Positions 12,315 to 29,968 are shown, counted from the first letter of the stretch. The stretch: DNA of 64,000 nt from Chloroflexia bacterium (GCA_034433695.1 DAOUAK010000038.1:2758-66757); one strand, 5' to 3'. Numbers and translations: made by a program. The notes: generated by a model not told the origin, from the sequence alone.

Positions 12315-13668
12315 ACGGCTTGCTCTCCTCCTGGCGCTCTTTCTCATGTCTTCCTGTGGCCCGCTGGCTCCGTCTCCGCAGGCGGGAGGTGTCAGGCCGG
12401 CTGGCGTGCCCTCTCAGACGCTTGTTCCCGCACCTACCCCAACGTGGACGCCTGCTCCTACGCAAACCCCCGTCCTCGTTGCCATCGAAGAGGTGATCGA
12501 GGGGGAAATGTGCGGAGCCTTTGACTTCTTCTGGGAACAGGCCAACACCGACCCTGAAAGCCCCGGCTACGGCCTTATCCGAGACCGTTATCCCGGTTCG
12601 GAGGGCATCGCCAGCATCGCCTCGGTCGGTTTCGGCCTCACTGCCTATGTGATTGGGGCGGAAAAGGGCTATGTCACGCGCGAACAGGCCTGCGAACGCG
12701 TGGCCGGCACGCTGGACACCCTCCTGGCCCTCGAGCGCGAACACGGCTTCTACTTCCACTTCCTCGATATGCGAACCGGCAGGCGTGCCTGGCAAAGTGA
12801 GGTCTCCAGCATCGACACCGCCATCCTGTTGATGGGTGTCTTGAGCGCCGGGGAGTACTGCCGCGAGAGCCAGGCCAAGGCCGAAGAAATATACACCGGC
12901 GTGGACTGGCCCTGGTTCGTGGACCCCGATCGGAACATGTTCTACATGGCTTACCGTCCGGAAAAGGGCTTTGAGGGTTATTGGGACTTTTACGCCGAGC
13001 AACTGATGCTCTACGTCCTGGCTGCCGGCTCGCCTACCCATCCGGTTGACCCGGTGGTGTACTATACCTTTACCCGCCACTCGGCCAAATACGGGGAGGG
13101 GCAGCCCTTTATTCACTCCTGGTTCGGCTCGATCTTTACCTACCAGTACAGCCATGCCTGGATCGACTTCCGTGGTCTCACCGACCGTCGGGGCGTGAAC
13201 TGGTTCGACAACTCGGTCGAGGCCTCCCTGGCGCATTACCGCTTCGCCGTGGCGATGGACGAAAAGTACCTGACGCTGGGTCCGCAGGCCTGGGGGTTGA
13301 CCGCCTGCGACAGCCCCCACGGGTACGAGGGACGTTACGGTGCACCCCCCTCCGGCTACGACTACAGACAGCACCTGGTGGATGATACGATTGCCCCCGC
13401 CGGAGCCATCGGCTCCATCCTCTTCCTGCCGGAAGAGGCCAAACAGGCCATGGCCTACTATTACTCCTTGGAAAAACTCCGGGGGCCGTACGGCTTTCAG
13501 GATGCCTTTAACCTGACCGAGAACTGGTTCTCCAGCGATGTCATCGGCATCGACAAGGGCATCTCCCTCTTGATGCTGGCGAATTATCAAAACGACCTGG
13601 TCTACGCCGTTACGATGAAGAATGTGCACATCCAGAATGGACTGGAAAGGCTGGGAATCACGAGATGA
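12307..13668 (+). CDS. GH144-like (glucoamylase-family / endo-beta-1,2-glucanase-like) lipoprotein
   Basis: GTG 12307 gives the signal VNRRLALLLALFLMSSC (lipobox-like) and overlaps the upstream stop. (alpha/alpha)6-type motifs are present: GYGLIRDR, SIASVGFGLTAYVIGAEKGYVTREQA, HGFYFHFLD, SSIDTAILLMG. The family call is from memory. Confidence 0.7.
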   Translation: MNRRLALLLALFLMSSCGPLAPSPQAGGVRPAGVPSQTLVPAPTPTWTPAPTQTPVLVAIEEVIEGEMCGAFDFFWEQANTDPESPGYGLIRDRYPGSEGIASIASVGFGLTAYVIGAEKGYVTREQACERVAGTLDTLLALEREHGFYFHFLDMRTGRRAWQSEVSSIDTAILLMGVLSAGEYCRESQAKAEEIYTGVDWPWFVDPDRNMFYMAYRPEKGFEGYWDFYAEQLMLYVLAAGSPTHPVDPVVYYTFTRHSAKYGEGQPFIHSWFGSIFTYQYSHAWIDFRGLTDRRGVNWFDNSVEASLAHYRFAVAMDEKYLTLGPQAWGLTACDSPHGYEGRYGAPPSGYDYRQHLVDDTIAPAGAIGSILFLPEEAKQAMAYYYSLEKLRGPYGFQDAFNLTENWFSSDVIGIDKGISLLMLANYQNDLVYAVTMKNVHIQNGLERLGITR

Positions 13669-14657
13669 TCACCATCAAAGACGTTGCCCAACGTGCCGGG
13701 GTCAGCATCACCACCGTTTCTTATGTGCTTAACGGCAAGGGGAACATCAGCGAAGCCACACGCCGGGCGGTTCTGGCTGCGGCGGAGGAACTCAACTACC
13801 ATCCTAACGCCCATGCCCGCCACCTGAAGAAGCGGAGAACGCGCACCATCGGTGCCTTTGTCGGCTCTCTGGGTGGCCTGTTCTACGAGGAGATTCTGGA
13901 AGGCGTCCACGCCGCAATCTTGCAAACGGACTATGAACTCATCGTCGTCCCGGAGACACATGCTCCCAGCCGTATTCTCTGCAACCGCCAGGTGGATGCC
14001 GCCATTGTCTTCGACGTCAAGATTCCGGACGATCTGCTGGTCAGCCTGGCCTGGAAACGCTTCCCCATCGTTACCTTCGACCGCTACCTGGAAGCCGAAT
14101 ACGTCTTTCCTCTCCTCGTCGATAACCCTAGCGGTACACGCGAGGTGTTCTACCACCTCTACAACCAGGGAGTCCGGCACTTGGCCTTTGTGGCCGGCGC
14201 TCCCGATTCGTTCGACAATGCCGAGCGCAAGGAAACCTTTCTCGGCGAAGCCGAAAAGCGTGGCCTCAGCGTCCGTTGCTATCAAGGGAACTTTACCGAG
14301 ACCTCCGGCTACCAGATTGCCCGGGAAATTATCGCTTCCCGAGACCTTCCCGAAGCAGTTTTCTGCGCCAACGATCAGATGGCAATCGGCTTCCTGAAGG
14401 CCATGCACGAACACGGCCTGCGCGCCCCCCAGGATATCGCTCTGGTCGGCTTCGACGACATCCCGGTCGCCTGCTACCTGCAACCGCCGCTTTCCACCGT
14501 CCACGTCTCGCGCACGGAATGGGGCCGACAGGCGGTGGTTCGGCTGATCGACTTTCTGGAGCACGATATCTCCTTTCCCCGAGAGCGAATTCCGGTTCGC
14601 TTCGTTGCCCGCGAATCTTCGCTGATCTCACCGCAGTTCCCACGGCCATTGCCATGA
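13665..14657 (+). CDS. LacI family transcriptional regulator
   Basis: N-terminal helix-turn-helix MITIKDVAQRAGVSITTVSYVLNG followed by a periplasmic-binding-like sugar-sensor fold. ATGA overlaps on both sides. Confidence 0.9.
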   Translation: MITIKDVAQRAGVSITTVSYVLNGKGNISEATRRAVLAAAEELNYHPNAHARHLKKRRTRTIGAFVGSLGGLFYEEILEGVHAAILQTDYELIVVPETHAPSRILCNRQVDAAIVFDVKIPDDLLVSLAWKRFPIVTFDRYLEAEYVFPLLVDNPSGTREVFYHLYNQGVRHLAFVAGAPDSFDNAERKETFLGEAEKRGLSVRCYQGNFTETSGYQIAREIIASRDLPEAVFCANDQMAIGFLKAMHEHGLRAPQDIALVGFDDIPVACYLQPPLSTVHVSRTEWGRQAVVRLIDFLEHDISFPRERIPVRFVARESSLISPQFPRPLP

Positions 14658-15946
14658 AAGCAGATACCCTCCTGGCCGAAGAAATTCGGGGGGCGGTCCG
14701 GTTCTTCCTGGAGCATACCAATCTTCACCCGGAAAGCCCCGGCTTTGGCCTGACCGTGGATTCGACCAAGCGGCCGGCCAGGGCTTCCATCGCTTCGACC
14801 GGCTTTGCCCTGACCGCCTGGGTGATCGCGGCCGAACGGGGCCTTATCCCGCAACAAGAGGCCCGCCGAATCGTCCACGGCACGCTCCACACCCTGTTCC
14901 ACCATGCCGACCAGCACCGCGGCTTCTTTGCCCACTTTTTGCACATCGACAGCGCCGGCCGCTTCGGCAAAAGCGAGTACAGCACCATCGACACCGCCCT
15001 CTGCCTGAACGGCGTCATCACCGCAGCCGCATACTTTCACCACGATGCGACCATCGCCGAACTGGCCGCAGGCATCCTCGATCGCGTGGACTGGGATTTC
15101 ATCGTCTTTGAGCGAGATCGAGAGGCCCTCTTCCGTATGGCCTACAACCCTGACCCGGACGGCGATTACGTCAGCGGGCAACCGGGCTTCATCGGCCAGT
15201 GGGATATGGCCGCCGAGCAGAAGATGATGTACCTCCAGGCCTCCCTGCACCTCGAGGCCGGCCTCGCCCGCCGGCTCTACCGGGGCTTTCGCCGCGACAT
15301 CGGCTACCACGAAGGCCGGCCGATCATCATCAACCCCGGCGGCAGCCTCTTTGCCTACCTGTTCAGCGAGGCCTGGCTGGATACCGCCCGCTACCTCGAT
15401 CCCGACGGCGTGGACTGGTTCGAGAACACCCGCCGCGCGGCCCTGGCCAACCGGGCTTTCTGCATCGAGAACTCGACGTGCTTCCGGACTTATCACGCCC
15501 GCAGTTGGGGATTGAGCGCCGGGGATAGCCCGCACGGCTACGACGTCTTTGGCGCCCCTCCCTGCCTGGGCGAACCCTATCACGATGGAACGGTCTCCAT
15601 CTATGCGGCCGTCGCTTGCCTGCCCTTCCTGCCCGAGGAGATCCTGGAAATGATGACCTACCTCCACCGCCATCAGCCGCGCACCTGGGGCCGGTACGGC
15701 TTCTTCGACGCCTACAACCTGGATGTCTCGCCTCCCTGGTACAGCCGGGCCGTTTATGCCATCGACAAGGGCTGCTCGATGATCATGACCGAAAACTATC
15801 TCAGCGGCCTGGTGTGGAGTGTTTACACAAGCAGTCCTTATATCCGCCAGGCTCTCCATACCCTGGGCTTCACCGAACGGGCCGGCCGGCTCCTATCAGG
15901 GCAAAACTCTGGAACAGCATCTCCCGCAGACGGATCGATTCCCTAG
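14654..15946 (+). CDS. GH144-like (endo-beta-1,2-glucanase-like) protein, cytoplasmic paralogue
   Basis: ATG 14654 overlaps the LacI stop. There is no signal peptide. The motif set matches 12307-13668 (SPGFGLTVD, SIASTGFALTAWVIAAERGLI, HRGFFAHFLH, STIDTALCLNG). Confidence 0.7.
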   Translation: MKADTLLAEEIRGAVRFFLEHTNLHPESPGFGLTVDSTKRPARASIASTGFALTAWVIAAERGLIPQQEARRIVHGTLHTLFHHADQHRGFFAHFLHIDSAGRFGKSEYSTIDTALCLNGVITAAAYFHHDATIAELAAGILDRVDWDFIVFERDREALFRMAYNPDPDGDYVSGQPGFIGQWDMAAEQKMMYLQASLHLEAGLARRLYRGFRRDIGYHEGRPIIINPGGSLFAYLFSEAWLDTARYLDPDGVDWFENTRRAALANRAFCIENSTCFRTYHARSWGLSAGDSPHGYDVFGAPPCLGEPYHDGTVSIYAAVACLPFLPEEILEMMTYLHRHQPRTWGRYGFFDAYNLDVSPPWYSRAVYAIDKGCSMIMTENYLSGLVWSVYTSSPYIRQALHTLGFTERAGRLLSGQNSGTASPADGSIP

Positions 15947-15958
15947 AAGGAGGATGCC

Positions 15959-18265
15959 GTGAACCTGACCTTCCGTAAGGGCCTCTTCTGGCTGGATGAC
16001 CGCCCGCTCATACTCCAGGCCGGCGAATTCCATTACTTCCGCACTCCCCCCGACCGGTGGGAGCATCGCCTCGGCCTGCTCAAAGCGGCCGGCTTCAACG
16101 CCGTTGCCTCCTATATCCCCTGGCGCTGGCACGAGCCTGAGGAGGGGCATTTCGACCTGGACGGCCACAGCCACCCGATGCGCAACCTGGCCGGCTTTCT
16201 CGACCTGGCTGCCGAGATGGGCCTTTTCATCATTGCCCGCCCCGGCCCCTACATCATGGCCGAGACGATCAACGAGGGCATCCCCGATTGGGTCTTTTCC
16301 CACTATCCACAGGTCGCTTTCATCGACCAGCACGGCCGGCCGCAGAACATCGTCAGTTACCTGCACCCCGATTTCCCGACCTGCGCCGCCCGCTGGTTGC
16401 GCGCCGTCTTCGGCGTGCTCGCGCCGCGCCAGGTCACACGCGGTGGGCGTATCGTGCTCGTGCAATTGGATAACGAGATGGGCATGATGCACTGGGTACG
16501 TAACATCCTGGACATCCACCCCGATACCCTGGAGCGTTTCGCGACCTGGCTCCGGCAGACCTACGGCGAACAGTTGGCGGAGCGTTACCCGACGACGAAT
16601 CTGGTTTCCTTCCTGCGCCAGGGCATCACCCAGGCGCGGAGTCCCCATGCCGCCCGCACGGTGGAGGATTACCGCCGCTTCTTCCGTGGCTACCTGCGTG
16701 AGTATGCCGCCTTTCTGCTGAACGAAGCGCAGAAAAACGGCCTGGAAGTGCCGCCGGTGATCAACGTCCACGGCTTTGCGAACGGCGGCAAGACCTTTCC
16801 CATCGGGCTTTCCCAACTGGTCGAGGTGATGGAACTGCCCGGCGTGCTCACCGCCACCGATGTCTATCCCGGCTTCATCGGCGAGGGCAACTATCATGAA
16901 CTGCTGCTGGTCAACGAGATGACGCGCGCCCTCCAGAACCCACAGCAACCGCTCTTTTCCATCGAGTTCCAGGCCGGCGGCAACCAGGACTTTGGCGGGG
17001 CGCAGACTTCCTTCTTCGATCTGCATACCCGTCTGAGCCTCTCCGTGGGGATGCGCGCCATCAACCACTACCTCTTCTTCGATGGGGAGAACGACCCCCT
17101 GCTCAGCCCGGTGCGGCGCCACGATTGGGGACACCCCGTGCGCAAAGACGGCAGCCTGCGCCGCCACTACCACCGCTACCCCCAACTTTCCCAGACTCTG
17201 GCGGCCTATGGGGAGGCCCTTGCCCTCGCCCGCCCGCAGACCGTCACCGCCGTCGGCTTCCGGCTGGACGACTTTTCGACCGAGGTCAACACGCCCGCCA
17301 CCGAAGAGGCCACCCGAATTATCACCCACCAGCGCGAGGTGATCCTCTTCGACTTTATCGCCCGTGGTCTGGCGCTGACCCACCGGCCGTTCCGCGCCCT
17401 GGAACTGGGCCGCGCCGCGCTCGATGTACGGGAAACTCCCACCCTCTGGGTGATGAGCGAGCGGCGCTGTGAGGCCGCGATCCAGCGGAAGTTGGTCGAT
17501 TACGTCCGCTCCGGTGGCCGCCTGGCCCTCATCGGCCGGCTGTGTCTGGAGGATGGAGACGGCCGGCCCTGTACATTGTTGCGCGACGCCCTCGGCCTGA
17601 CGGCCGTCCAGAGCGACCCGCCCTTTACCCCCAGCCACATCGACGCCTTTGGCTACACCGACATACCCGTCTCGTTTGTGGAAACCTACCGCGGCGTGTT
17701 CGACCGGGTCATCGCCACCCGGCATGGCGAGACGGTGGGCTTTGTCAGGGCGCTGGGCAAGGGGCAAGTCCTTGTCCTTGGGGCAGCGCTCGAGGCCAAT
17801 ACCCTGGAAGACCTCGACCTCCTGCACCGGATGGCGCTGGAAATAGGCTGCCCCCCCGCCTTCACCCTGAGCGAGTGGGCCGACGTGCGCCTGAGCCGGG
17901 GCGAAAAGGGCGGTTTTCTTTTCATCAACAACTACCAGGATGACCCGATCGAGACCTGCATCGCCTGGCAGGGACAACCCCTCTTTGGCGGGAACGCCAT
18001 CTATCTCCCGGCCCGCCAGGGCGCCATCCTGCCGCTGGACTGGCAGGTAGCCGAAGGGGTTACCCTGCACTATGTCACAGCGGAGGTACGCCGTGTGGAA
18101 CGCCGGCCGGAGTCGCTCATTCTGGGACTGGCCCAGGACGCTTTCGCGGCCGAGTTGAGCCTGAGTGGCTGGGAATGTCCAGAGGCGCAACGCGTATCGG
18201 AGTCTGTCCCTCCCCGTCTGTTCCTGCGGGGGAGGGATGGGCAAATCGTTCTGTACAGACAATGA
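15959..18265 (+). CDS. Glycoside hydrolase family 35 protein (beta-galactosidase-like fold)
   Basis: GTG start follows AAGGAGGA. GH35 N-terminal pattern FWLDDRPLILQAGEFHYFRTPPDRWEHRLGLLKAAGFNAVASYIPWRWHEP...ARPGPYIMAE, plus LDNEMG (acid/base region). Confidence 0.75.
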   Translation: MNLTFRKGLFWLDDRPLILQAGEFHYFRTPPDRWEHRLGLLKAAGFNAVASYIPWRWHEPEEGHFDLDGHSHPMRNLAGFLDLAAEMGLFIIARPGPYIMAETINEGIPDWVFSHYPQVAFIDQHGRPQNIVSYLHPDFPTCAARWLRAVFGVLAPRQVTRGGRIVLVQLDNEMGMMHWVRNILDIHPDTLERFATWLRQTYGEQLAERYPTTNLVSFLRQGITQARSPHAARTVEDYRRFFRGYLREYAAFLLNEAQKNGLEVPPVINVHGFANGGKTFPIGLSQLVEVMELPGVLTATDVYPGFIGEGNYHELLLVNEMTRALQNPQQPLFSIEFQAGGNQDFGGAQTSFFDLHTRLSLSVGMRAINHYLFFDGENDPLLSPVRRHDWGHPVRKDGSLRRHYHRYPQLSQTLAAYGEALALARPQTVTAVGFRLDDFSTEVNTPATEEATRIITHQREVILFDFIARGLALTHRPFRALELGRAALDVRETPTLWVMSERRCEAAIQRKLVDYVRSGGRLALIGRLCLEDGDGRPCTLLRDALGLTAVQSDPPFTPSHIDAFGYTDIPVSFVETYRGVFDRVIATRHGETVGFVRALGKGQVLVLGAALEANTLEDLDLLHRMALEIGCPPAFTLSEWADVRLSRGEKGGFLFINNYQDDPIETCIAWQGQPLFGGNAIYLPARQGAILPLDWQVAEGVTLHYVTAEVRRVERRPESLILGLAQDAFAAELSLSGWECPEAQRVSESVPPRLFLRGRDGQIVLYRQ

Positions 18266-18311
18266 AACGGTGACTCTCTAGCAATGGCATAGGCCCATCA
18301 AGGAGCACACA

Positions 18312-20420
18312 ATGGACGACACCGCGTCTTTCGTCGAGAACCTTCTGGCCCAAATGACCCTCGAAGAAAAGATCGGGCAACTCCACCAGATCCACCTTGA
18401 CGACGATTTCGACCCGGACATGCTACGCCAGGGGCACGTCAGTTCGGTCCTCAACTTGCCTGACACGCTGGCCGGCTACGACCGGAGCGATTCCGGCAGA
18501 GCGGAAGCCGTCAACTACCTGCAGCGGCTGGCGCTGGAAGCCCCCCTCAAGATCCCGCTGCTCGTTGGACGGGATGTGATCCACGGTTTTCGCACCGTCT
18601 TTCCCATCCCGCTGGCCCAGGCCGCCGCGTTCGACCCCGAACTGGCCCGACAGGCCGCCGAGGTCGCCGCCCGCGAGGCCACCGCTTGCGGCATCAAGTG
18701 GACCTTTGCCCCCATGCTCGATATCGCCCGCGACCCGCGCTGGGGACGCATCGCCGAGGGTAACGGTGAAGACCCGGTGCTGGGGGCACGCATGGCCGAG
18801 GCCGTCGTCCGCGGCCTGCAGGGCGAGGATATGTCCCGTCCCGAGAAAATGGTCGCCTGCGCCAAGCACTTTGCCGGGTACGGGGCTGCCGAGGGTGGGC
18901 GGGACTATGAAAACGGCGAAATCTCCGACCCTACCTTGCGGGATATCTACTTGCCTCCCTTTGAGAGCGCCGTGCGCGCCGGGGTCGGGACGGTGATGTC
19001 CGCTTTTATTGACCTGAATGGGATGCCCGCCACCGCGAGTCGCTACCTTCTGACCGACATCCTGCGCGGCGAGTGGGGCTTCGACGGCTTTGTCGTCTCC
19101 GACTGGGAAGCGATCCGCGAACTCGTTGAGCATGGGGTGGCGGAGGACCGGGCCCATGCCGGCCGCCTGGCCCTCCATGCCGGCGTGGATATGGACATGG
19201 TCAGCGGCATCTACCTGGAAACGCTGGCCGAGGGCGTCCGTAACGGGACTGTTCCGATCGAAGAAGTGGACGAAGCCCTGCGCCGCATCCTGCGCATCAA
19301 AAAGCGCGCCGGCCTGTTTGAAAGCCCCTTCACCGATCCCGCCCGAGCCGCCCGGGATTTGCTCACTCCAGATGCGCGCCTGCTTGCCCGGAGGTTCGCC
19401 CGCCAGAGCATGGTACTGCTCAAGAACGAAGGGGGACTGCTCCCGCTGCAGGGCTTTCGCCGCATCCTGGCGGCCGGCCCCTTTGTGCACGCCCAAAGCG
19501 AGTTGTTCGGCACCTGGACGTTCGACGGGCGTGCCGAGGATGTCACCCCGGTCGATCAGGCCCTGCGCCAGACTGCCCCGAAAGATGTGGAACTGTGGTT
19601 CGCCGACTCGGCGGACCTGGCGCTGCGTATGGCATCAGCAGTGGACGCCGTGATCCTGCTGATGGGCGAGCACCCGGTGCGCTCCGGCGAGAACTCCAGC
19701 GTCAGCGATCTGGGTTTGCCACCCGGTCAGGCCGAGTTCATCGCCGCCATCGCCGCCTTGGGCAAGCCGGTGGTGCTGGTCGTCTTTGCCGGGCGCCCAC
19801 TGGCCATGACCCGGCAGGTGGAGCAGGTGCAGGCCGTGCTCTATGCCTGGCATCCGGGGATAGAAGGGGGCATGGCCCTGGGAGAAATCCTCTTCGGCCT
19901 GGAGGCCCCCGGCGGGCGGCTACCGGTGACTTTTCCCCGGGCTACGGGTCAGGTTCCCATCTATTACAATCACAAGAACTCCGGCCGGCCGATCGGTTCA
20001 AACGGGTACTTTACCCGCTACAGCGACCTGCCGTCCTCGCCGCTCTTTCCCTTCGGTTACGGCCTGACCTACACCACCTTTGCGTATGCCAACCTGCGCC
20101 TGAGCAGCGATGTGCTGCGCGGCCATGTGGAGATCAGCGTCGAGGTCACCAACACGGGCCCGCGCCCCGGCCGTGAGGTGGTCCAGTTGTACGTGCGCGA
20201 TCTGGTCGGTTCGCTTACCCGCCCGGTGCGCGAACTCAAGGATTTCCAGAGCGTCGAACTGGACCCCGGCAAAACCACCCGCGTCACCTTTTCCCTGAGC
20301 GAAGACCAACTGGCTTTCACCGGCGCCAGCGGCCGGCGGGGCGTCGAACCCGGAACCTTCCACATCTGGGTCGCTCCTCACAGCCAGGGTGGGTTGCAGG
20401 GAACGATAACGATACCTTAA
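18312..20420 (+). CDS. Glycoside hydrolase family 3 beta-glucosidase (BglX-like)
   Basis: MTLEEKIGQL, the KHFAGYG motif, the nucleophile region GFDGFVVSDW, and a C-terminal fibronectin-like domain. Confidence 0.9.
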   Translation: MDDTASFVENLLAQMTLEEKIGQLHQIHLDDDFDPDMLRQGHVSSVLNLPDTLAGYDRSDSGRAEAVNYLQRLALEAPLKIPLLVGRDVIHGFRTVFPIPLAQAAAFDPELARQAAEVAAREATACGIKWTFAPMLDIARDPRWGRIAEGNGEDPVLGARMAEAVVRGLQGEDMSRPEKMVACAKHFAGYGAAEGGRDYENGEISDPTLRDIYLPPFESAVRAGVGTVMSAFIDLNGMPATASRYLLTDILRGEWGFDGFVVSDWEAIRELVEHGVAEDRAHAGRLALHAGVDMDMVSGIYLETLAEGVRNGTVPIEEVDEALRRILRIKKRAGLFESPFTDPARAARDLLTPDARLLARRFARQSMVLLKNEGGLLPLQGFRRILAAGPFVHAQSELFGTWTFDGRAEDVTPVDQALRQTAPKDVELWFADSADLALRMASAVDAVILLMGEHPVRSGENSSVSDLGLPPGQAEFIAAIAALGKPVVLVVFAGRPLAMTRQVEQVQAVLYAWHPGIEGGMALGEILFGLEAPGGRLPVTFPRATGQVPIYYNHKNSGRPIGSNGYFTRYSDLPSSPLFPFGYGLTYTTFAYANLRLSSDVLRGHVEISVEVTNTGPRPGREVVQLYVRDLVGSLTRPVRELKDFQSVELDPGKTTRVTFSLSEDQLAFTGASGRRGVEPGTFHIWVAPHSQGGLQGTITIP

Positions 20421-20682: not shown

Positions 20683-22083
20683 CTACAGCTTCACCACCAC
20701 CATACCCCCTGCCGAACGACCCCAGAGTTCGGGCCGGTACATCGGATAGGCCTCGGCCGGCAGGGCGTGGAAGGTGCCGGCCGTCGTCGCCCGCGCCAGG
20801 TAGGTGAAAGTGTGCGGACCGGGGTCGAGTTCGTTGAAGAAGAGCGCCACGGCGTCATCGTACACATCCTTGCGGCTATAGAGGTAGTGGCCGGCCCCCT
20901 CATAAGCCCGGGCGGCGTAACTCGTGGTCGCCAAGCGCTCGTTCAGCCCTTCCAGCCCGGCCGGGAGGGGGTCGTAGAGGATGACGTAGTAGGCCATCTC
21001 CGGGAAGTTCACCGTCAGATGCACCTCCACCAGGTCGCCCACCCGGAGCGGCCCCTCGATCGGCTTCCCGCCGGGCCGGGTGTACGTCCGCTCCACCCGA
21101 ACCCGGCCGGCCGGCCGGATCTCTTCCTCCACGCTATAGAGGCGCAGGACCACGGTGTAGTATAGCCGGCCGTTCCCGCCGTGGAGCAACCGTACCTCGT
21201 TTTCCCCGATCCGGAGGGCCGTGGCGGGCAATACCACCCTCGCCCCCTGTTCTACCTGGGTAAAGGCTCCCTCGGCCACCGTCTGCCCGTTCACATCCAC
21301 CCGGTAGTTCTGCTGGTCCATCTGCATCTGCACGCTCAGCACATAGTCCGATAGCGCCAGCAGGGCATAGGAGGTTTCCTGGGTGGTGTTCCAGGCGTGG
21401 CCCCGACGCTGCCCCATCAGCCAGCGCACGACCTTGGGAATCAGAGGATGGTCCGGGCGGATGTGCACCAGTGCATCCAGGGCCAGTGCCGTCGAGCGTA
21501 CCGAAGAGGACATGGTCTTCTCCCTGTAGTGGCCGTCCTCGATTCCGGTATCCCAGTAGGCCAGGTCGTCCTTCACCACGGCCTTTTCCGCCAACCTGTC
21601 CACCAGCAGGCCGGCCGTGGCATCGTCTCCGGCGGTGTAGAGGGTCAGGGCCAGCGCGGCCTGGCTAAAGGGGTCAAAGTCCTTCACCTCGCCGTTCAGC
21701 ACCCGGGAAGCCAGTACCTGGGCCCGGCCCGGCTCCACGTGGCCGGCCGTAGCCAGAGCAAAGAGGGCATAGGCCTGGGTGCGGACATCCATCGTGTCCA
21801 GATGTTGGCGCAGGTATTCGGCCCCACGGGCGATCACGCCGTCGTCAATCTCAAAGCCGGCCTGTTCGGTCATCGCCAGACCGAAGAGGATGTAGGCCGT
21901 CTGGTAATCGTGGGAAGGATCGTCGAACCACCAGCCCCAGCCGCCGTCCTCGTGCTGGAAGCCGTAGAGTTTCTGCCGGCCGACGTCCACCATCTTGGGC
22001 AGGTCCGCCTCCAGGCGCTCGTTGCGTACCCCCAGGATCCGGAAAGCCCGACCGATGATCGCATTGGGGAGCACACGGCTCAT
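20683..22083 (-). CDS. Alpha-2-macroglobulin family protein, C-terminal fragment (thioester domain onward)
   Basis: MSRVLPNAIIGRA... follows the thioester motif region. It contains an alpha-helical TED-like segment (FQHEDGGWGWW, ETSYALLAL) and a receptor-binding-like C-terminus. It is in frame with the upstream fragment. Confidence 0.8.
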   Translation of the reverse strand: MSRVLPNAIIGRAFRILGVRNERLEADLPKMVDVGRQKLYGFQHEDGGWGWWFDDPSHDYQTAYILFGLAMTEQAGFEIDDGVIARGAEYLRQHLDTMDVRTQAYALFALATAGHVEPGRAQVLASRVLNGEVKDFDPFSQAALALTLYTAGDDATAGLLVDRLAEKAVVKDDLAYWDTGIEDGHYREKTMSSSVRSTALALDALVHIRPDHPLIPKVVRWLMGQRRGHAWNTTQETSYALLALSDYVLSVQMQMDQQNYRVDVNGQTVAEGAFTQVEQGARVVLPATALRIGENEVRLLHGGNGRLYYTVVLRLYSVEEEIRPAGRVRVERTYTRPGGKPIEGPLRVGDLVEVHLTVNFPEMAYYVILYDPLPAGLEGLNERLATTSYAARAYEGAGHYLYSRKDVYDDAVALFFNELDPGPHTFTYLARATTAGTFHALPAEAYPMYRPELWGRSAGGMVVVKL

Positions 22084-22095
22084 CGTCTGTTCCGT

Positions 22096-22098
22096 TCA
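22096..22098 (-). other. In-frame TGA at the position of the A2M thioester cysteine codon
   Basis: The minus strand reads CTC ATC GAT TAC CCC TTT GGC TGA ACG GAA CAG ACG ATG AGC CGT, which translates as LIDYPFG*TEQTMSR. The canonical A2M/ECAM motif is YP(Y/F)GCxEQT. Confidence 0.9.
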
Positions 22099-25000
22099 GC
22101 CAAAGGGGTAATCGATGAGGTACTCCAGGCCGTCCAGAAGGGCGTTCACCACCGAGGGCGAAAGGCGGATCTCCAGCGTGGTCACCTCGGGAATCGCCTT
22201 CTCCGGCAAGACGATGCGCTCGATGTGTTCGCCCTGGAATTCCCCGGCCCACGTTTCCACCCGGGGCACGGCAAAGGGGCGCACCGGAATCGCGTACTGG
22301 ACGGCATCGCTCAGGCCCCCGCCCCGGGCGTAGGCGGTGACGGTGACGGCGCCCAGGGTGCCGGCTTCCAGGGCCCAATGGAGTGGGGCCGTTTCCCCGG
22401 CGGCCAGGCTTAGCGTCTGGGTAAGCGGGCTATGGAGGGCCAGACCCTGGGGAAGCAGGCCGGCCTGGAGGGATAGAGGACCTTCGCTGTAGTTATGCAA
22501 CGTGGCGGTCAGGGTGAAGGTATCGCCCTGGATGAGGAAGCGGGGGACGGCCGGCCGGATGACCAGCGGCTGGGTGACGGTGAGCGCCACCGTCCCCTCG
22601 CCCAGGCGCGTATCCACGGTGACGGCGCGGGCCAGCAGCCGCCAGCGGGTGAGCGAATCGGGCAGGCGCAACGTCACGACGGCCCGACCTTCGGCATCGG
22701 TCAGGATGCGGGGGTTCCAGTAGGCCGTATCGGGAAAATGGCGGCGCGGGTTGCCCACGTCAATGCCGTCGCCTCCACCGCCCCTCTCCGCCCCACCGAG
22801 TTCCCGCACCGGCTTGAGGGAGTGATAGGTGCGCACCAGGTTCGTCCGGCGGCTGTAGAAAGCCTCGAAGGGGTCCTGTGCCAGGTCCTGGGAAAGGGCG
22901 TAAATGGCCTCATCCACCACGGCCAGGGAAAGTTCGGCCTGCACCGGCCGGCCGGCTACATCGGTTACCTGAATGACGATTTCGGCCTCCTCCCGAGGCG
23001 CGTAGGTCGGGCGCTGCGGGGTAAGGGTCACCCGCAGGCGGCGCTCCTCCGGCGGAACGGCAAGTTCGGTACTGGCGATCAGGAGTTCGGCATCGGGGAT
23101 ACTGGTGTAACTCCAGTGGTCGAGCGGCTGGTTCGTCGGCCGGTAAATCTGCACCGTGACGAAAATGTTGGGGACAAAGTCGGCCTCCACGGGCAGGGTG
23201 ATGGCGGTGACGGTTCCGCTCAACTCCACCGGCTGCATCCGCCGCACCCGACCGCGCTCCAGGGTCAGGAGGGCCGTGCCGGTCACCGGCGAATGCACCA
23301 GAAGCCGGGCCGTCTCGCCCACAGTATAAGAGGATTTGTCGGCGCTGATGCTCAGGCCTCCGCCCTGCCCCCAGTCGACCCAGGGCGTAGCACCGGTGGG
23401 GTCATAGACCCAGATCCAATCCTCCAGTTCCTTTTCCCCCTGCACCAACACCCGGAACCACCCCTGCCGATCCACACGCAGGGGGAGGCGAGCCTGGCCG
23501 GAAGCACCGGTGACGAGTTCTCCCTGGGCCACGGGGACGTATTTCTCTCCATCCCAGTGGTAGATGCCGCCTTGGAGCCGGGCGCCGGCCACTGGCCTTC
23601 CCAGGTAATCGTGCACTACCACCTCCAGAGGAATCTCCTCCCCAGGCGAGTAAATATGGCGTCCCAAGAGCAAGGCGGCACCCTGCGGGTTTCGGTATAC
23701 CTCCACCAGGGCATGGCCGCTGACCGACTGACCGCTTCCGTCCTCCACCGTGGCCTCCAGGTCGAGGCGGGAAAGGTCGGGCGACCACCAGGAGTATTCG
23801 GCTATCCGGGCCGGGATACGCACCACCCAGCGCCCCTGGGCATCGGTAGTGCCGCCATAGTCCCCCTCCCGGTACAATTGGGCCCAGCAGTCGGAGGCAT
23901 CCATCCCGCATTCCCATTCACCGTAGGCCTGCTTGTAGACGGTCAGTTTGACCGGGGCTCCGGTCACAGGCCGGCCGAAATAGTACTGGGCCTCCACGGT
24001 CACCGTGATCGTCTCGCTCAGGAGGTAGCGCCCGCGGTCGGTCGTCACGGTGACCTGATAATCGGGCTTGCGGTACTCTTCCACCTTGAGCGCCTGGCGG
24101 GTAACCTCTTCGCCCACGACCACCTCGACGTTATAGGTGCCCAGCGTTCCACCTTCGGCCAGGGCAAAAGAGGTGTAGGCGGTGCCGAATTCGTTCAAAG
24201 GAAGCACCTGGGTGGCCAGAACGTTATCGCGGGCATCGCGCAGGCGCACGGTGATCGGGGTGCCGGCCGGGGGCAGGGAGTAGAGGGCATCGTCATCGTT
24301 GCGGACGACAGCGCGGACGTGGACCGTCTGGCCGGGCCGGTAGATAGGGCGGTCGGTATAGACATAGACGCGGAAAAGCCGGCCGGTAGGCGGGTTGGTG
24401 AGCCAGCCGCGCCAGGACCACCAGCCGCCCTGGGCATCCCACTCCGGCCCAAAGCCGCAGAGCGTCGTTTCGCCCTCCACCTCTCCCAGGGCGAGGAGCG
24501 GGTCGGTATCCCCCCCTACCGTTATCTCGAAGCGGCCCTGCTCCTCGGTCATACCCTGGCCGTAGAGCCGGCCGGAGCGGTCGTAGAGACGCACCACCAT
24601 GCCAGGGCGGGGCTGACCGGTGGAGATGCGCGTGGCGTACCCGGCCACCTGATGCTGGGCGGTGGTGCCGAGGCCGGTGGAGGCTTCCTTGAGGAGGAGG
24701 GTATAATGGGTCAGCACGACGATCAGGCGGTCGCCGTGGCCGGTGGAGGCTTGGGGGGCCAGGACATAGAGGCCGGGAGGAAGGTCGGCCGGGAGGGTCA
24801 CCTCCCTGTCCGTCTCCTCGGCTCTCCACTGGCGCACGATGGGCAATCCTTCGATGGAGATGACCACCGGGCTCTTGAGGGAGGAGGTATAGTCGGCCAG
24901 GAGGCGTTCCATCGGGAGTTGATAGAGGACAAAGATGGGAGGACAGGAGGCCGAATCCCAGCGCTCGTACTGGATACGGCGGGGGCCGGCGGCATCCATA

Positions 25001-26103
25001 ATCTGAATGTTGGGTCCGTAGCCAAAGTTCACCGCGGTCTGCCGGTAGTCGACCCGAAAGTTCCAGCGGAGCGGCTTCCGCAGGAGCGGGCTACCGTCGG
25101 CAGCACGGGCAGAAGGTTCCAGAAGCACCTGGTAGGTCTCCGAAGAAAGCTCCCCCGAAGGAACAAAGCGCAGGGCGGTTTTCTCCCATTCGAAGGTGCC
25201 GGCGAGGGTAGGGGTGATATGGAAGGCGGCCTCGACGCTGGCGTGGTCGGGTTCCCGGTCGAAGGTGATGCCGATGGTGCTGCAGGGCGAGGCCTTTCCT
25301 TTGGGGAAAACATCCACCACCCGCGAACGAGTGGTAAAGGTCCAGTGCAGCGGTTTCGCCAGGGTCATTATTCCGGCTTCATCCCGTGCCCCGGCATCCA
25401 GGGTGAGGGTATAGGTCGTCTCCACCTCCCAGCCATCTTCCGGCTCCAGAAGCAAGGTTCCTTTCGACCAGGAGAGGCGGTAGGGCGTCGCCGGCTCCAG
25501 GTGCAGGGCCTGTTCGATGGAGCGTGCGTCGACCGGATAGGGGAAGGAGAGAGATAGAGGGGCATCGGGATCGCGCCCCTGGGAGGCCCCGAGAAAGGTG
25601 GCAAAGGGCTGGGTGGTGAAGATGAGGCGAGGCGAGTTCCGGGCGCTGCGCACCTCGAGGATGTAGCGGGTTGCCGGTAGCCAGGCGGGGATGGGGGTCA
25701 GGGCCAGGGAACGTTCGTCCACGATCGTCCGGCGCAGGGGCACGCTCGGCGAGATCACGATCCGCACCGTCCTCGGGTCGATGGGGCGGTCGAAGGTGAG
25801 GACGAGAGAAGCCTGCAAGTGGGATGGGATCGGCCCGGTGCTTGTCAGGGGCGGAGATTTGCCCGGGGCGAAATCCTCCTGGAGGCGTTCCTCCACGAAC
25901 GCCCACCAGCTGATGGCCGGTGGGACGGGGGTAGGGGTAGGGGCCGGCGTGGATGTGGGGGACGGGGTAGACGTCGGGGAGGCGGTTGGGAGTGGAGGAG
26001 GCGGAGCGGCCGTCTCCCAGACGGCCGGCAGGAGCACCAGAAACAGAAGGAGCAGGAAGCCGAGAAACGGAACGGGCGCGATCAGACGGATGGACCCTTT
26101 CAT
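22096..26103 (-). CDS. Alpha-2-macroglobulin family protein, N-terminal fragment (macroglobulin domains), ending at the TGA
   Basis: ATG 26103 follows AGGAGGTG. The protein has a TM/signal anchor, a Pro/Thr/Ser linker and many MG-like beta-sandwich repeats. It ends with the ...LEYLIDYPFG motif immediately before the thioester site. Confidence 0.85.
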   Translation of the reverse strand: MKGSIRLIAPVPFLGFLLLLFLVLLPAVWETAAPPPPLPTASPTSTPSPTSTPAPTPTPVPPAISWWAFVEERLQEDFAPGKSPPLTSTGPIPSHLQASLVLTFDRPIDPRTVRIVISPSVPLRRTIVDERSLALTPIPAWLPATRYILEVRSARNSPRLIFTTQPFATFLGASQGRDPDAPLSLSFPYPVDARSIEQALHLEPATPYRLSWSKGTLLLEPEDGWEVETTYTLTLDAGARDEAGIMTLAKPLHWTFTTRSRVVDVFPKGKASPCSTIGITFDREPDHASVEAAFHITPTLAGTFEWEKTALRFVPSGELSSETYQVLLEPSARAADGSPLLRKPLRWNFRVDYRQTAVNFGYGPNIQIMDAAGPRRIQYERWDSASCPPIFVLYQLPMERLLADYTSSLKSPVVISIEGLPIVRQWRAEETDREVTLPADLPPGLYVLAPQASTGHGDRLIVVLTHYTLLLKEASTGLGTTAQHQVAGYATRISTGQPRPGMVVRLYDRSGRLYGQGMTEEQGRFEITVGGDTDPLLALGEVEGETTLCGFGPEWDAQGGWWSWRGWLTNPPTGRLFRVYVYTDRPIYRPGQTVHVRAVVRNDDDALYSLPPAGTPITVRLRDARDNVLATQVLPLNEFGTAYTSFALAEGGTLGTYNVEVVVGEEVTRQALKVEEYRKPDYQVTVTTDRGRYLLSETITVTVEAQYYFGRPVTGAPVKLTVYKQAYGEWECGMDASDCWAQLYREGDYGGTTDAQGRWVVRIPARIAEYSWWSPDLSRLDLEATVEDGSGQSVSGHALVEVYRNPQGAALLLGRHIYSPGEEIPLEVVVHDYLGRPVAGARLQGGIYHWDGEKYVPVAQGELVTGASGQARLPLRVDRQGWFRVLVQGEKELEDWIWVYDPTGATPWVDWGQGGGLSISADKSSYTVGETARLLVHSPVTGTALLTLERGRVRRMQPVELSGTVTAITLPVEADFVPNIFVTVQIYRPTNQPLDHWSYTSIPDAELLIASTELAVPPEERRLRVTLTPQRPTYAPREEAEIVIQVTDVAGRPVQAELSLAVVDEAIYALSQDLAQDPFEAFYSRRTNLVRTYHSLKPVRELGGAERGGGGDGIDVGNPRRHFPDTAYWNPRILTDAEGRAVVTLRLPDSLTRWRLLARAVTVDTRLGEGTVALTVTQPLVIRPAVPRFLIQGDTFTLTATLHNYSEGPLSLQAGLLPQGLALHSPLTQTLSLAAGETAPLHWALEAGTLGAVTVTAYARGGGLSDAVQYAIPVRPFAVPRVETWAGEFQGEHIERIVLPEKAIPEVTTLEIRLSPSVVNALLDGLEYLIDYPFG

Positions 26104-26240
26104 CGTGCACCTCCTGGACAACTCCGGTGAGACCTTTGCCCTCATGTTACATCCGAAGTCATCCCGAGGGCCGACGTCAGGGGATTTGTTGGCCTACGTT
26201 TGTTCGACGCCAGGTAGACGGGGGCGTAAGGGAACGGCTT

Positions 26241-27182
26241 TCAAGAGGATGGCCAGCGCCAGGGTTCGTCCAGCAGGTGCACCTCCACCGTCTCGATGCC
26301 GTCCAGGCCTCGCAGGGCCCGGCGCACCTGCTCGGTGAGGTAGCCGGCCAGGGGGCAGGTAGGGCTGGTGAGCACCATATCTACCTCGGCCCGTCTTCCC
26401 TCCACCCGCACGTCGCGGATCAGTCCCATCTCCACCAAATTGCCTCCGACCTCGGGGTCGGGGATGCCGCGCAGGGCCTCCCAGGCCCGGGCCCGGACCT
26501 CGTCGGGCGGGGCAGGAGGAGAGAGGGGCGAGACACCGACCAGGGCCTCTTCCAGGGCACGTACCCGCTCTTCCAGCCGGCTGTAACGCTCCAGCACCTG
26601 GCTGAGGGCCTGCATCACCGGGTCGGGCAGGCGGCCGTGCTCCAGGTAGCCGGTGAGGTCGGCCGGTTCCCGGGGACCGGCCAGCCGGGCCGGCACCCCC
26701 ACCACCGTGGCCCCGGCCGGCACCGACCGCACCACCACCGAACCGGCCCCGATGCGGGCATCGTCCCCCACGGTGATCGGCCCCAGGAGGATGGCCCCGG
26801 CCCCGATGACCACCCGGTTGCCCACCGTCGGATGACGCTTGGTCTTCTGCAGGCTGGTCCCGCCCAGGACGACCCCCTGGTAGAGGAGCACATCGTCGCC
26901 CACCTCGGCCGTCTCTCCGATCACCACCCCCATGCCGTGGTCAATGAAGCAGCGCCGGCCAATCTTGGCTCCGGGGTGGATCTCCACGCCGGTCAGGAAG
27001 CGGTTGAAATGGGAAAGCAGTCGCCCCAGGAATTTGAAGCCGTGCCGCCAGAGGAAATGGGCCAGACGGTGCAACCAGATGGCATGGAGGCCCGGGTAGG
27101 TAAAGAGGACCTCCCAGACCGTGCGGGCGGCGGGGTCTTTGGCAAAGGCGGTGGCGATGTCCTCGCGCAGCATACGGAACAT
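26241..27182 (-). CDS. cysE: Serine O-acetyltransferase fused to a C-terminal DUF59 (SufT/MIP18-like) domain
   Basis: The N-terminal 175 aa or so are CysE-like with hexapeptide repeats ([38 protein letters not shown]...). A coiled linker follows. The C-terminus [43 protein letters not shown] is typical of DUF59. Confidence 0.8.
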
Positions 27183-27198
27183 TTCGCGCTCCTGGGGA

Positions 27199-28125
27199 CT
27201 AATCCCCGAAGAGGTCGGTGCTCAGGTAGCGCTCCCCGGTATCGGGGAGGACGACGACGATGAGGGCCCCCGCGTTTTCCGGCCGGCCGGCCACCTGAAG
27301 GGCGGCATGTGCCGCCGCTCCGGAGGAGATGCCGCAGAGGATGCCCTCCTCGCGGGCCAGGCGGCGGGCCATGGCGATGGCTTCCTCGTCCTGGACCCGG
27401 ATAATCTCATCCACCAGGTCCAGGCGCAACACCTCGGGGATGAAGCCGGCCCCGATGCCCTGAATTCGGTGGGAACCCCGTTGGCCGCCCGAAAGGACCG
27501 GAGAGCGGGCCGGCTCGACGGCGATGGCCCGGAAGGAGGGTTTGCGGGCCTTGATGACCTCGGCCACGCCGGTGATCGTCCCTCCCGTGCCCACGCCGGC
27601 CACCAGGATGTCCACCTGGCCGTCGGTATCGCGCCAGATCTCCTCGGCGGTGGTGCGGCGGTGGACGGCGGGATTGGCCGGGTTGCGGAACTGCTGGGGG
27701 ATAAAGTAACGCGGGTCCTGGGCGGCCAGTTCCTCGGCCCGGCGCACGGCCCCGGGCATCCCTTCATCCCCCGGCGTCAGGATGAGTTCGGCCCCTAGGG
27801 CCCGAAGCAGCCGGCGGCGCTCCAGGCTCATCGTCTCCGGCATCGTCAGCACCAGGCGGTAGCCGCGGGCGGCGCAGACCATGGCCAGGGCGATGCCGGT
27901 GTTGCCGCTGGTCGGCTCCAGGATGATCGTGTCGGGTCCGATGAGGCCGGCCTGCTCGGCAGCCTCGATCATGCTCAACCCGATGCGATCCTTCACACTG
28001 GAACAGGGGTTGAACGACTCCAACTTGGCCAGAACGGTGGCCCCAAGCCCCCGGGCGACACGGTTCAGGCGCACCAAGGGGGTGTTGCCGATCGTCTCGG
28101 TGATATCCCTGTAGATCCGACCCAT
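27199..28125 (-). CDS. cysK: Cysteine synthase A (O-acetylserine sulfhydrylase)
   Basis: ATG 28125 follows GGAGGA. Motifs: [21 protein letters not shown], the PLP-Lys region [12 protein letters not shown], and GTGGTITG. Confidence 0.9.
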
Positions 28126-28180
28126 CGCTTTCCTCCGGAAGGTCCTCCAATCTGCCAATCCACTCCTCGAGGAAGGAGTA

Positions 28181-29968
28181 CTAATCCACCGTCAGCGTCT
28201 TGCTCAGATTGCGGGGAAAATCCGGGTCATAGCCCCGGGCCACGCTCAGGCGGTAGGCCAGGAGTTGCAGCGGAAGTACGGCCAGGAGGGGATTGAAGAG
28301 CGGGCCGGCCGAAGGCAGCACGATCAGGTCGTGGGCATTGGAGCGCAAGCGGGGGTCCTCTTCCCCGATGGCGATGGCCCGTCCGCCCCGACAGACCATC
28401 TCGTTGATGCCGCTGACCAGGAGGGGCACGTCTTCCGGGCCGGCCACAAAGAGCACGGCATAATCGTCCTGCACTGCCGAGAGGGGACCGTGCTTGAACT
28501 CGGTGGAAAGCATCCCCTCGCAGTGGGCGTAGGTAATCTCTTTCATCTTCAAGGCCCCCTCCAGGGCGATGGGATAGGTCAGGCCGTAGCCCAGACAATA
28601 GAGGTCATCCCGTTTCTCCAGGATCGGTTCCAGGGGGGCGATCTGCGGTTCCACCCGGGCAATCGTCTCTTCGAGCAGGTCGGGGAGGGCGTCCAGTTCC
28701 CCGGTGGAATGGCCGCCCAGACGCAGGGCGAGGAAAAGGAAGGCCACCGCCTGGTTCATAAAGGTCTTGGTGGCCGGCACGCTGATCTCATAGCCGCAGG
28801 CCAGGGGAAGGTAGCATTCGCTTTCGTGGCGCAGGGTGGAGCCGAGCACGTTGACCAGGGCCAGCCGGCCCATCCCCCGCTTCCGAGCCGCCTCCAGGGC
28901 GTTCAGCACGTCCTTGGTCTCCCCACTCTGGCTGACAAAGACCCCCACATCCTCCGGCCCTATGGCGTTGCCATACTGGGCGATGAATTGGGGGGCCAGG
29001 ATGGGGACGGCCGGCCGTCTGGCCAGCCGACCCAGATAGATGGCCCCCAGGAGACAGGCATGGTAACTGCTGCCGCAGCCGATCAGGTAGAGGTGATCGG
29101 CCCGGGCAATCCGCTCCACCATCGGTGCTACAAAGGGCGAGGCCTGGAGGAGGTGGAGGAGTTCCCGTACCCGCACCGGCTGCTCGTGAATTTCCTTCAG
29201 CATAAAGTGGGGATACCCCTCCTTCGTAGCCGCCTCGATGCTCTCGGTCACCCATTCCGGCTCCCGTTCCACCCGGCTGCCGTCCTCCACCTGGCGCAGT
29301 TCCACCCGATCGGGCCACAGGATAACGATCTCGCCGTCCTGCACCCGCAAGATGCGGCGGGTCAACGGCAGGATGGAGGGAAGGTCGGAGGAAACGCAGG
29401 TGGCCCAATCGGCCAGGCCGACCGCCAGGCTGGAGCCTTTCTTCAGAGCGTAGAGGCAGTCCTCGCCCATCCGGCCGATGACAAAGGCATAATCCCCGGC
29501 CAGGTCGTTATAGGCGCGGCGGATGGCCTCCACCATGTCATAGCCCCGATTCACATAGCGCTCCACGGCGTGGACGCACGACTCGCCGTCGTTGGTGGAG
29601 CGGACGATCATCCCCTCGGCCATGAATTCCAGGCGCAGTTCGACGTTGTTGACCACGTTGCCGTTGTGGGCACCGACCATATCGCCATCCGAGTCCAGGT
29701 GAGGCTGGGCGTTGGCCTGGGAGGGAGCGCCGAAGGTGGCCCAGCGGAGTTGCAGGATGCCCCGCCGACCGGCCATCTCGGCAAAGTTCAGCCGTTCGGC
29801 CACCTCGTCCACCCGCCCCACGTCCTTGCGGAGGTCAATGCCCTCGTCATCCAGGGTGGCACAGCCGACCGAATCATAGCCCCGGTAGGAGAGGCGCCGG
29901 CCGGCCTCGATGAGGATCGGCCCTAACGTCCGCCGATGATCGGTGACAATGCCAAAGATGCCGCACAT
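28181..29968 (-). CDS. glmS: Glutamine--fructose-6-phosphate aminotransferase (isomerising)
   Basis: N-terminal nucleophile MCGIFG, a GATase-2 domain, two SIS domains, and C-terminus ...NLSKTLTVD. Confidence 0.85.

Follow-up and report, generated by a model that had tools for sequence, protein, structure and literature searches.

The described systems closest to the gene reported here are the bacterial alpha-2-macroglobulin (A2M) family proteins of the ECAM/YfhM type, which share with A2M and C3 a reactive thioester formed between a Cys and a Gln. In E. coli, yfhM is adjoined by pbpC, which is a frequent, though not universal, neighbor of ECAM-type A2M genes. A second bacterial type, MagD/YfaS, has the A2M scaffold but no Cys where the thioester would form; its CxEQ motif is degenerate, and no stop codon is involved. 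The eukaryotic thioester proteins all use Cys to our knowledge, and we know of no form with selenocysteine (Sec) in its place. Selenoproteins that have been catalogued are predominantly redox enzymes (PMC13188914). Here we describe an A2M gene in a 64,000-nucleotide stretch of DNA from a Chloroflexia bacterium (GCA_034433695.1, DAOUAK010000038.1:2758-66757), referred to throughout as the window, in which the codon for the thioester Cys is an in-frame UGA. Judging from sequence comparisons, this UGA is likely to be decoded as Sec, giving a full-length A2M-type protease trap of ~1,820 residues.

A single A2M gene with UGA at the thioester cysteine codon

The gene occupies 26145..20683 on the minus strand as a single reading frame of 1,820 codons plus a terminal TAG, and its translation is that of an A2M-family protein. 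The sole internal stop across these 1,820 codons is a TGA at 22098..22096, which falls within LIDYPFG*TEQTMSR in translation, and there is no frameshift either. Read on the minus strand, the junction is CTC ATC GAT TAC CCC TTT GGC TGA ACG GAA CAG ACG ATG AGC CGT. An earlier note on this DNA, made from the window alone, had proposed that the two open reading frames (ORFs) at 22096..26145 and 20683..22083 are one A2M gene of about 1820 codons, and translation bears this out, as both lie in the same frame. The parts of the gene are as follows.

20683..26145, minus strand: complete A2M-family gene, recognized by its single frame, the order of its Pfam domains and structure homology to ECAM/YfhM
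22099..26145, minus strand: 1,349 codons up to the UGA, for the MG, bait-region and A2M domains, with LIDYPFG at the end (translation, Pfam)
22096..26145, minus strand: N-terminal ORF as called, 1,349 aa (ORF listing)
22096..22098, minus strand: in-frame UGA in place of the thioester Cys codon, proposed to encode selenocysteine as residue 1350 (translation, alignment)
22084..22095, minus strand: T-E-Q-T codons between the UGA and the next ATG, including Gln1353, the proposed (seleno)ester partner (codon comparison)
20683..22083, minus strand: C-terminal ORF, 466 aa, beginning MSRVLPNA, with the remaining thioester domain (TED) and MG10, ending at the TAG stop (ORF listing, Pfam)

By Pfam, Big_5, MG2, MG3, A2M_BRD and A2M precede the TGA and TED and bMG10 follow it, and with the phmmer matches this amounts to the full ECAM-type series of MG, bait-region, A2M, TED and MG10 domains, all in order. 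When the protein is compared with PDB sequences by phmmer, the residue of E. coli YfhM/ECAM (5a42, 4ziq) opposite the TGA is the Cys of YPYGCLEQT, and the earlier proposal that the only interruption of the gene sits on the reactive Cys of CxEQ holds. The CxEQ motif of a thioester A2M is not present as such, the Cys codon being UGA with the xEQ kept. Decoding of the UGA as Sec would turn it into UxEQ, a motif expected to act in the manner of a thioester site although without the Cys that defines one. The chance that a random nonsense mutation falls exactly on the thioester Cys codon is ~1/1,820. By inspection, a hydrophobic stretch at the N-terminus (IAPVPFLGFLLLLFLVLLPAVW) precedes a linker rich in Pro, Thr and Ser, with no obvious lipobox Cys, and the protein is predicted to be membrane-anchored through this stretch.

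Conservation of the UGA in relatives and metagenomes

Scanning one genome per GTDB species with the protein as guide gave 37 loci, and in 35 of these the motif was located. The codon is TGA in four of the 35 (L001, L002, L003 and L030, from the MAGs JBMFNL01, JASFBA01, DAOTVY01 and JBHIET01, respectively) and TGC or TGT in 31, L035 included. The four TGA-bearing loci all belong to Chloroflexota, three being Chloroflexia metagenome-assembled genomes (MAGs) at 90, 88 and 64% protein identity and one an Anaerolineae MAG at 53%; independent assemblies that share the TGA differ by synonymous divergences (dS) of 0.4-1.0. The earlier note had suggested asking in an alignment of orthologues whether TGA is conserved at this codon, and it is, in the four GTDB loci down to 53% identity and in other A2M lineages too. 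The UGA is thus in frame and aligned with the Cys of its homologues (ECAM, and TGC or TGT in the 31 related loci), it is conserved in orthologues, and coding sequence is conserved on either side of it, all of which are expected of a selenoprotein gene.

Metagenome contigs were searched with a DNA pattern, YP[FY]G-TGA-x-E-Q-T, that matched 93 stretches; ~88 of these have open frames on both sides and five resemble chance matches. The open frame past the TGA extends 360-510 codons in these contigs. Conservation of EQ among the matches is partly imposed by the pattern, which lessens what it can say in favor of Sec; loci recovered by protein similarity, without the DNA pattern, keep the Gln partner and the YP[FY]G...EQT motif. 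The same break is visible in protein databases, where ~55 of the 120 best matches are fragments of 450-560 aa (two are near 690 aa) with 47-95% identity to the query that start with MSRVLPNA, at the ATG four codons past the TGA. Four N-terminal fragments of orthologues stop at YP[FY]G, namely P0027, P0041 and P0115 (YPFG) and P0120 (YPYG). The 466-aa ORF of the window itself has no entry in the contig index.

These results bear directly on whether the UGA reflects a pseudogene, a recent nonsense mutation (TGC to TGA), or a sequencing or assembly error in this one genome, which we now regard as extremely improbable. The change from TGC to TGA is a single substitution and the window by itself would leave room for it, and the earlier note had called a nonsense mutation or sequencing error fully possible. 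That assessment is contradicted by the recurrence of the same TGA in independent assemblies, at the divergences given above, and in the ~88 metagenome contigs, as well as by a frame that has no second stop or frameshift in 1,820 codons and in which the ratio of nonsynonymous to synonymous substitution rates (dN/dS) downstream is 0.16-0.26. Nor do the relatives show the pattern that the earlier note took to point to an error, with close relatives all carrying Cys and no conserved structure downstream, since relatives carry TGA and the element that follows it, described below, is conserved.

Sec-type genes were found in at least eight lineages, and in a rough neighbor-joining tree without support values they are interleaved with Cys (TGC/TGT) forms, which implies many switches between the two. 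Clade 1, to which the window belongs, has the motif YPFG*[TV]EQTMSRVLPNA. Clade 2 is a large clade of ~1,100-aa Anaerolineae proteins with the motif RYPFG*AEQTSS (loci L040-L130, for example, L078 at 1933..5320, and proteins P0121-P0240); 119 of its 120 best database matches are C-terminal fragments, and only P0121 has Cys. Its Pfam matches to A2M and MG2 are sub-threshold only and its TED is distantly but recognizably ECAM-like, and clade 2 has the look of a separate branch of the A2M superfamily, one made up mostly of selenoproteins. Clade 3 consists of ~1,950-aa proteins whose named Cys relatives are Myxococcaceae or Kofleriaceae (Myxococcota), and several smaller groups besides these three clades occur among the TGA-type matches.

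Two further observations concern the distribution of the two forms. At clade-1 codon -2 from the UGA (window 22104..22102), Phe is present in 14/15 Sec forms and Tyr in 27/29 Cys forms, so that YPFG of the Sec forms and YPYG of the Cys forms differ by a Tyr-to-Phe change beside the reactive residue. The other is an A2M-like protein of the Asgard archaeon Candidatus Lokiarchaeum ossiferum (L037; CP104013.1, 207129-214616), a Cys form at 25% identity with an intact YPYGCVEQTMSK thioester motif.

Translation through the UGA

Past the UGA, dN/dS is 0.16-0.26 for close clade-1 pairs, which is as low as before the UGA. The E, Q and T codons that follow the UGA are kept as amino acids in clade-1 Sec forms and vary in their codons (GAA/GAG, CAG/CAA, ACG/ACC). 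Since the T/V-E-Q-T codons hold to these amino acids and vary in their third positions, we infer that they are translated and that translation continues through the UGA.

If the UGA were instead a stop, the locus would be a split gene encoding a 1,349-aa protein and a separately started 466-aa protein (ATG at 22083), perhaps forming a thioester-less A2M assembly. Thioester-less bacterial A2Ms of the MagD type reportedly exist, gene callers give two ORFs everywhere, and in the window's clade there is indeed an ATG four codons past the UGA; purifying selection on both halves is predicted by the split model too. The Met encoded by this ATG, however, is equally conserved in Cys forms (M in 29/29) and is hence no special start, and the T/V-E-Q-T codons ahead of it are conserved as amino acids. 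Clades 2 and 3 are without an ATG near the UGA and their predicted restarts disagree; the starts assigned to the clade-2 C-terminal fragments change from contig to contig, which leaves that clade with no conserved restart. Wherever clade-1 and clade-2 matches found by protein similarity, without the DNA pattern, are interrupted, the break falls on the Cys codon itself and the codon is TGA. A split gene would also leave unexplained both the synonymous constraint 18-29 nt downstream and the hairpins of other clades with a G first in the loop, which are taken up in the next section. Taken together, these points make a split gene quite unlikely, and continued translation through the UGA is the reading that we follow below.

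A conserved RNA element downstream of the UGA

In the model for bacterial selenocysteine insertion sequences (bSECIS), the loop has 3-9 nt, the stem at least 4 bp, a G stands in one of the first two loop positions, the distance from UGA to loop is 16-37 nt, and the minimum free energy (MFE) is -7.5 kcal/mol or lower (PMC13188914). The region that follows the UGA in the window contains these candidate elements.

22067..22093, minus strand: candidate SECIS region, comprising the invariant block and two candidate folds
22082..22067, minus strand: invariant 16-nt block UGAGCCGUGUGCUCCC (sequence comparison)
22069..22081, minus strand: mini-hairpin GAGC[CGUGU]GCUC, 4 bp, starting 14 nt past the UGA
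22093..22068, minus strand: alternative interrupted helix GGAACA.ACG[AUGAGC]CGU.UGCUCC, the MFE fold of the first 36 nt

The block UGAGCCGUGUGCUCCC is identical in 16/16 distinct clade-1 Sec forms and in three L067-type sequences of another lineage. Codons +6 to +9 from the UGA are AGC-CGT-GTG-CTC in all 16 of the clade-1 forms, and this is the only run of four codons without synonymous variation in an alignment of ~1,050 codons with 613 informative columns (rank 1 of 212 windows). The 29 Cys forms, in contrast, have CGC or CGG (or Lys), GCG or GCC, and CTG at the hairpin codons, with CGT never and CTC once, and no Cys form has a hairpin like GAGC[CGUGU]GCUC. In L054, which belongs to another lineage, the hairpin reads GACC[CGUGU]GGUC: both sides of the third stem pair are altered and the pairing is kept, a single compensatory case. 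The downstream element is thus under selection as RNA by the measure of synonymous constraint, though not by that of covariation.

The mini-hairpin agrees with the core rules of the bSECIS model: its stem has 4 bp, its loop has 5 nt with a G in second place and a U next to it, and its spacing from the UGA is 18 nt. The earlier note had described this 4-bp GAGC/GCUC hairpin with its CGUGU loop, and the hairpin is there (22081..22069), starting at 14 nt past the UGA and not at the 15 nt given. It had judged the hairpin weak and no convincing SECIS; the weakness in energy is real (-3.8 kcal/mol, p = 0.5), but the invariance of the stretch and its agreement with the core rules make the element more persuasive than was allowed. 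The first 36 nt past the UGA have an MFE of -9.1 kcal/mol in the window, as a different fold, and of -16 kcal/mol in relatives with V-E-Q after the UGA (VEQ-type), and both candidate folds require the same invariant 3' strand.

Other clades have hairpins of unrelated sequence with G-first loops 16-22 nt past the UGA, among them CCC[UGUAU]GGG with variable extensions, CCUCGU[CGGGU]ACGAGG, GGGCAA[GGUC]UUGCCC, GGCCAA[GUU]UUGGCC and GGCAGG[GUU]CCUGCC. In 63/80 Sec forms and 0/30 Cys forms the best hairpin has a GU-containing loop that starts 18-27 nt from the U of UGA, by a criterion chosen post hoc. Several clades are individually more stable here than synonymous-codon shuffles (p <= 0.02), and taking one representative per clade the combined p is ~5e-6. 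The description of this UGA in the earlier note as a Sec candidate is accordingly favored over nonsense by the conservation of the TGA, by purifying selection in both halves, by the retained EQT, and by close Cys-form relatives that lack the downstream element.

Some features near the UGA go beyond the hairpin itself. Codon +8 of clade 1 encodes Val (GUG) in Sec forms and Ala in Cys forms, and we ascribe the Val to the RNA element. In the subclade with T-E-Q after the UGA (TEQ-type), the codons ACG GAA CAG ACG directly after the UGA are also nearly invariant (22093..22084 in the window and the equivalent sites of L001, L002, L003, L038, L047, L085, L090 and L093), and GAA is retained although GAG would close the mismatch of the longer candidate helix. 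This invariance suggests a specific requirement near the UGA beyond either candidate fold. The second-lowest window of synonymous variation in the clade-1 A2M alignment lies far upstream, at codons -272 to -270 from the UGA (~window 22906..22914), and could be another RNA-level or translational constraint.

Weighing selenocysteine decoding

Several results weigh against the decoding of this UGA as Sec, and they concern both the RNA element and the machinery that would read it. At -3.8 kcal/mol the mini-hairpin of the window falls short of the MFE rule of the bSECIS model, and it is not more stable than synonymous-codon shuffles (p = 0.35-0.5 in clade 1); for the 36-nt MFE in the window's subclade the same comparison gives p ~0.2, and a plain MFE fold of the 79 nt past the UGA gives z = -0.25. 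Formal covariation is absent, the clade-1 element being invariant. In clade 2, RNAalifold on 30 sequences retained only three invariant C-G pairs, and a 7-bp helix in a single register did no better than shuffled pairs (64.8% versus 63.3%). Rfam had no match at gathering thresholds across the whole window. As for the machinery, the 64 kb of the window contain no tRNA, no tRNA-Sec by ARAGORN, and no selA, selB or selD; ARAGORN found no tRNA-Sec in 53 related loci, and tblastn with E. coli SelA, SelB and SelD found nothing in ~0.8 Mb of related loci except the selD of L137/L138.

The 42-nt MFE does not separate Sec forms (-10.3 kcal/mol) from Cys forms (-11.1 kcal/mol), and bulk folding energy is non-discriminating in the GC-rich DNA considered here. 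The clade-2 subfamilies seem to use shifted helix registers. A permissive Rfam scan of 21900-22200 returned a chance sR48 match only, and seven further clade-1 contigs had no conserved synteny and no sel genes. Among accepted bacterial selenoprotein genes, 12.6% are without a canonical SECIS (BSepDB), and Chloroflexota include Sec users.

The selD homologue just mentioned, with 43% identity to E. coli SelD, is on a clade-3 contig (L137/L138), 5 kb upstream of the start of a pair formed by a Sec-A2M gene and a pbpC-like gene. It occupies 1..1010 of L137 on the minus strand, with a TGA at 880..878 that corresponds to the position of Cys17 in VKAAG*ASKLPP, the UxxK motif of Sec-type SelD, and it is the same in L138. 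The gene caller has shortened the L137 protein to 320 aa. The TGA is followed by a GC-rich two-tier hairpin, CCUCCAGG[GGA]CCUGGAGG, that is similar to CCGCGUC[GGG]GACGCGG, the hairpin found in the A2M gene of that contig.

An alternative that would also allow translation through the UGA is readthrough without Sec, by a near-cognate Trp or Cys tRNA and stimulated by structure; related to it is the possibility that Sec is inserted and serves in a redox or metal-binding role without forming a selenoester. The scarcity of Sec machinery in the window and the related loci searched, where only the selD of L137/L138 was found, speaks for readthrough, as does the marginal energy of the window hairpin, and a role without a selenoester would be in keeping with a catalogue in which nearly all selenoproteins are redox proteins (PMC13188914) and with the fact that selenoester formation is argued from analogy. 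Against readthrough, hairpins with G[G/U] loops 16-22 nt past the UGA are the signature of bSECIS, a Sec-type SelD with a similar hairpin lies on a Sec-A2M contig, and selenoprotein families classically show UGA and Cys codons replacing one another repeatedly at the site of a catalytic Cys (PMC1794560), as is seen here. Against a role without a selenoester, the Gln partner and the YP[FY]G...EQT motif are kept in loci found without the DNA pattern. We consider these alternatives unlikely, although somewhat less so than a split gene, and return to Sec insertion with a selenoester in what follows.

A possible selenoester in a protease trap

If the UGA is decoded as Sec, a SelB-type elongation factor with Sec-tRNA(Sec) would be recruited by the RNA element at 22093..22067, with its core GAGC[CGUGU]GCUC, and Sec would be inserted at residue 1350 in place of the thioester Cys to give the full-length A2M. 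The selenol of this Sec could then attack the side-chain amide of Gln1353 in the motif U-T-E-Q. The Cys-Gln thioester of A2M, ECAM and C3 is the model for this step, and its counterpart here would be an internal gamma-glutamyl selenoester that lies buried in the TED. Formation of a selenoester from an amide may be less favorable than formation of a thioester, and this counts against the proposed step. Upon cleavage of the bait region, the selenoester would acylate a nucleophile of the attacking protease, resulting in covalent capture. Two papers describe selenoester ligation as very fast, with acyl transfer markedly faster than that of thioesters (PMC9314092, PMC8317654). Since selenoesters are the faster acyl donors, the trap would be more reactive than its thioester counterpart.

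What the comparisons establish is the placement of the UGA, its conservation and its recurrence across many lineages, a coding frame that carries on past it and a local constraint at the level of RNA; from these we infer that Sec is probably inserted, and the selenoester is a further inference. Reasoning from the thioester analogy, we put the prospect of a functional Sec-Gln selenoester in the window protein at about even. Our opinion is likewise evenly divided on the broader proposal that these genes constitute a widespread, uncatalogued selenoprotein family in which Sec stands for the thioester Cys and forms a natural intramolecular Sec-Gln selenoester, with repeated switching between Cys and Sec in Chloroflexota, Myxococcota-like and other lineages.

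If true, this would be the first protein selenoester crosslink, with Sec acting as an acyl-transfer "warhead" and not as a redox center, and the known chemistry of Sec would be widened to an internal selenoester at a site of covalent capture. The many pairs of Sec and Cys orthologues would constitute a natural experiment on why Sec is used over Cys. A genetically encoded, self-forming selenoester domain would also be useful for protein engineering. More immediately, public MAGs and metagenomes contain A2M genes by the hundred that are annotated as two separate "hypothetical" ORFs, and both gene callers and the profile sets used for selenoproteins could be amended accordingly.

Other features of the window

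The use of TGA elsewhere in the window is that of an ordinary stop. Many other coding-like ORFs end in TGA, and the TGA at 22098..22096 is the only one in the window flanked on both sides by GC periodicity of the coding type. A scan for further genes interrupted by an in-frame TGA found none in the 64-kb window, and in the related loci it gave noise only. Global recoding of TGA is ruled out by the many genes of the window that end in TGA together with the lack of any other interrupted gene, in agreement with what the earlier note had concluded from TGA stops elsewhere in the window, such as those in ATGA overlaps.

Directly upstream of the A2M gene on the same strand (26241..29968, minus) are a glmS-like gene (SIS and GATase), a cysK-like gene (PALP) and a cysE-like gene (hexapeptide transferase fused to FeS_assembly_P). 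A link of sulfur or selenium amino-acid metabolism to the Sec-A2M is possible, but relatives do not keep this gene order. A glycoside hydrolase cluster at 12256..20420 on the plus strand is convergent to the A2M gene and contains two PF10091 glucoamylase-like genes, one GH35/GH42-like gene and one GH3 gene, along with a LacI-type regulator.

Comparison with known systems

The earlier note had supposed that an A2M of this kind was undescribed, and within the sources covered this is so. A2M is not among the 119 prokaryotic selenoprotein families in Table 1 of a May 2026 review (PMC13188914), it is unmentioned in the papers on BSepDB (111 families) and deep-Sep, and no model in NCBIfam release 20 matches the Sec-A2M proteins. 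A search of full-text literature for selenocysteine or selenoprotein together with macroglobulin or thioester found nothing relevant, with incomplete coverage that would allow for a description elsewhere. In GenBank and JGI each half is annotated as a protein of its own, in most cases a hypothetical one.

The best PDB matches of the window protein are ECAM/YfhM and Salmonella A2M (5a42, 4ziq, 4rtd and 4u48; E ~1e-22), which have the same domain order. Identity is low, and the motif YP[YF]G-x-x-EQT is the same, but the thioester Cys codon of the window is UGA. The window protein further has a putative N-terminal hydrophobic anchor and a Pro/Thr/Ser linker without an obvious lipobox Cys. On L137, and also on L138, a pbpC-like gene comes next after the Sec-A2M gene, in parallel to yfhM and pbpC in E. 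coli, whereas the A2M gene of the window has no adjacent pbpC. Compared with the MagD/YfaS type, the window gene keeps the xEQ partner, the flanking motif and the downstream RNA element around the UGA. The eukaryotic thioester proteins (A2M, C3/C4, insect TEP1 and CD109), represented among the phmmer matches in the PDB by 7q1y, 6tav, 2pn5, 9fx2 and chains of C3/C4, have a homologous TED with a CxEQ-type site and differ in domain details and processing.

The bacterial selenoprotein families, such as SelD with its UxxK motif, FdhA and Prx, resemble the A2M genes described here in having an in-frame UGA at a catalytic Cys, interleaved Sec and Cys forms, a small hairpin with a G-first loop 16-37 nt downstream, and an ORF that gene callers split. 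The Sec-A2M genes differ from these families in the residue replaced, which is the acyl-carrying Cys of an internal thioester and not a redox Cys.

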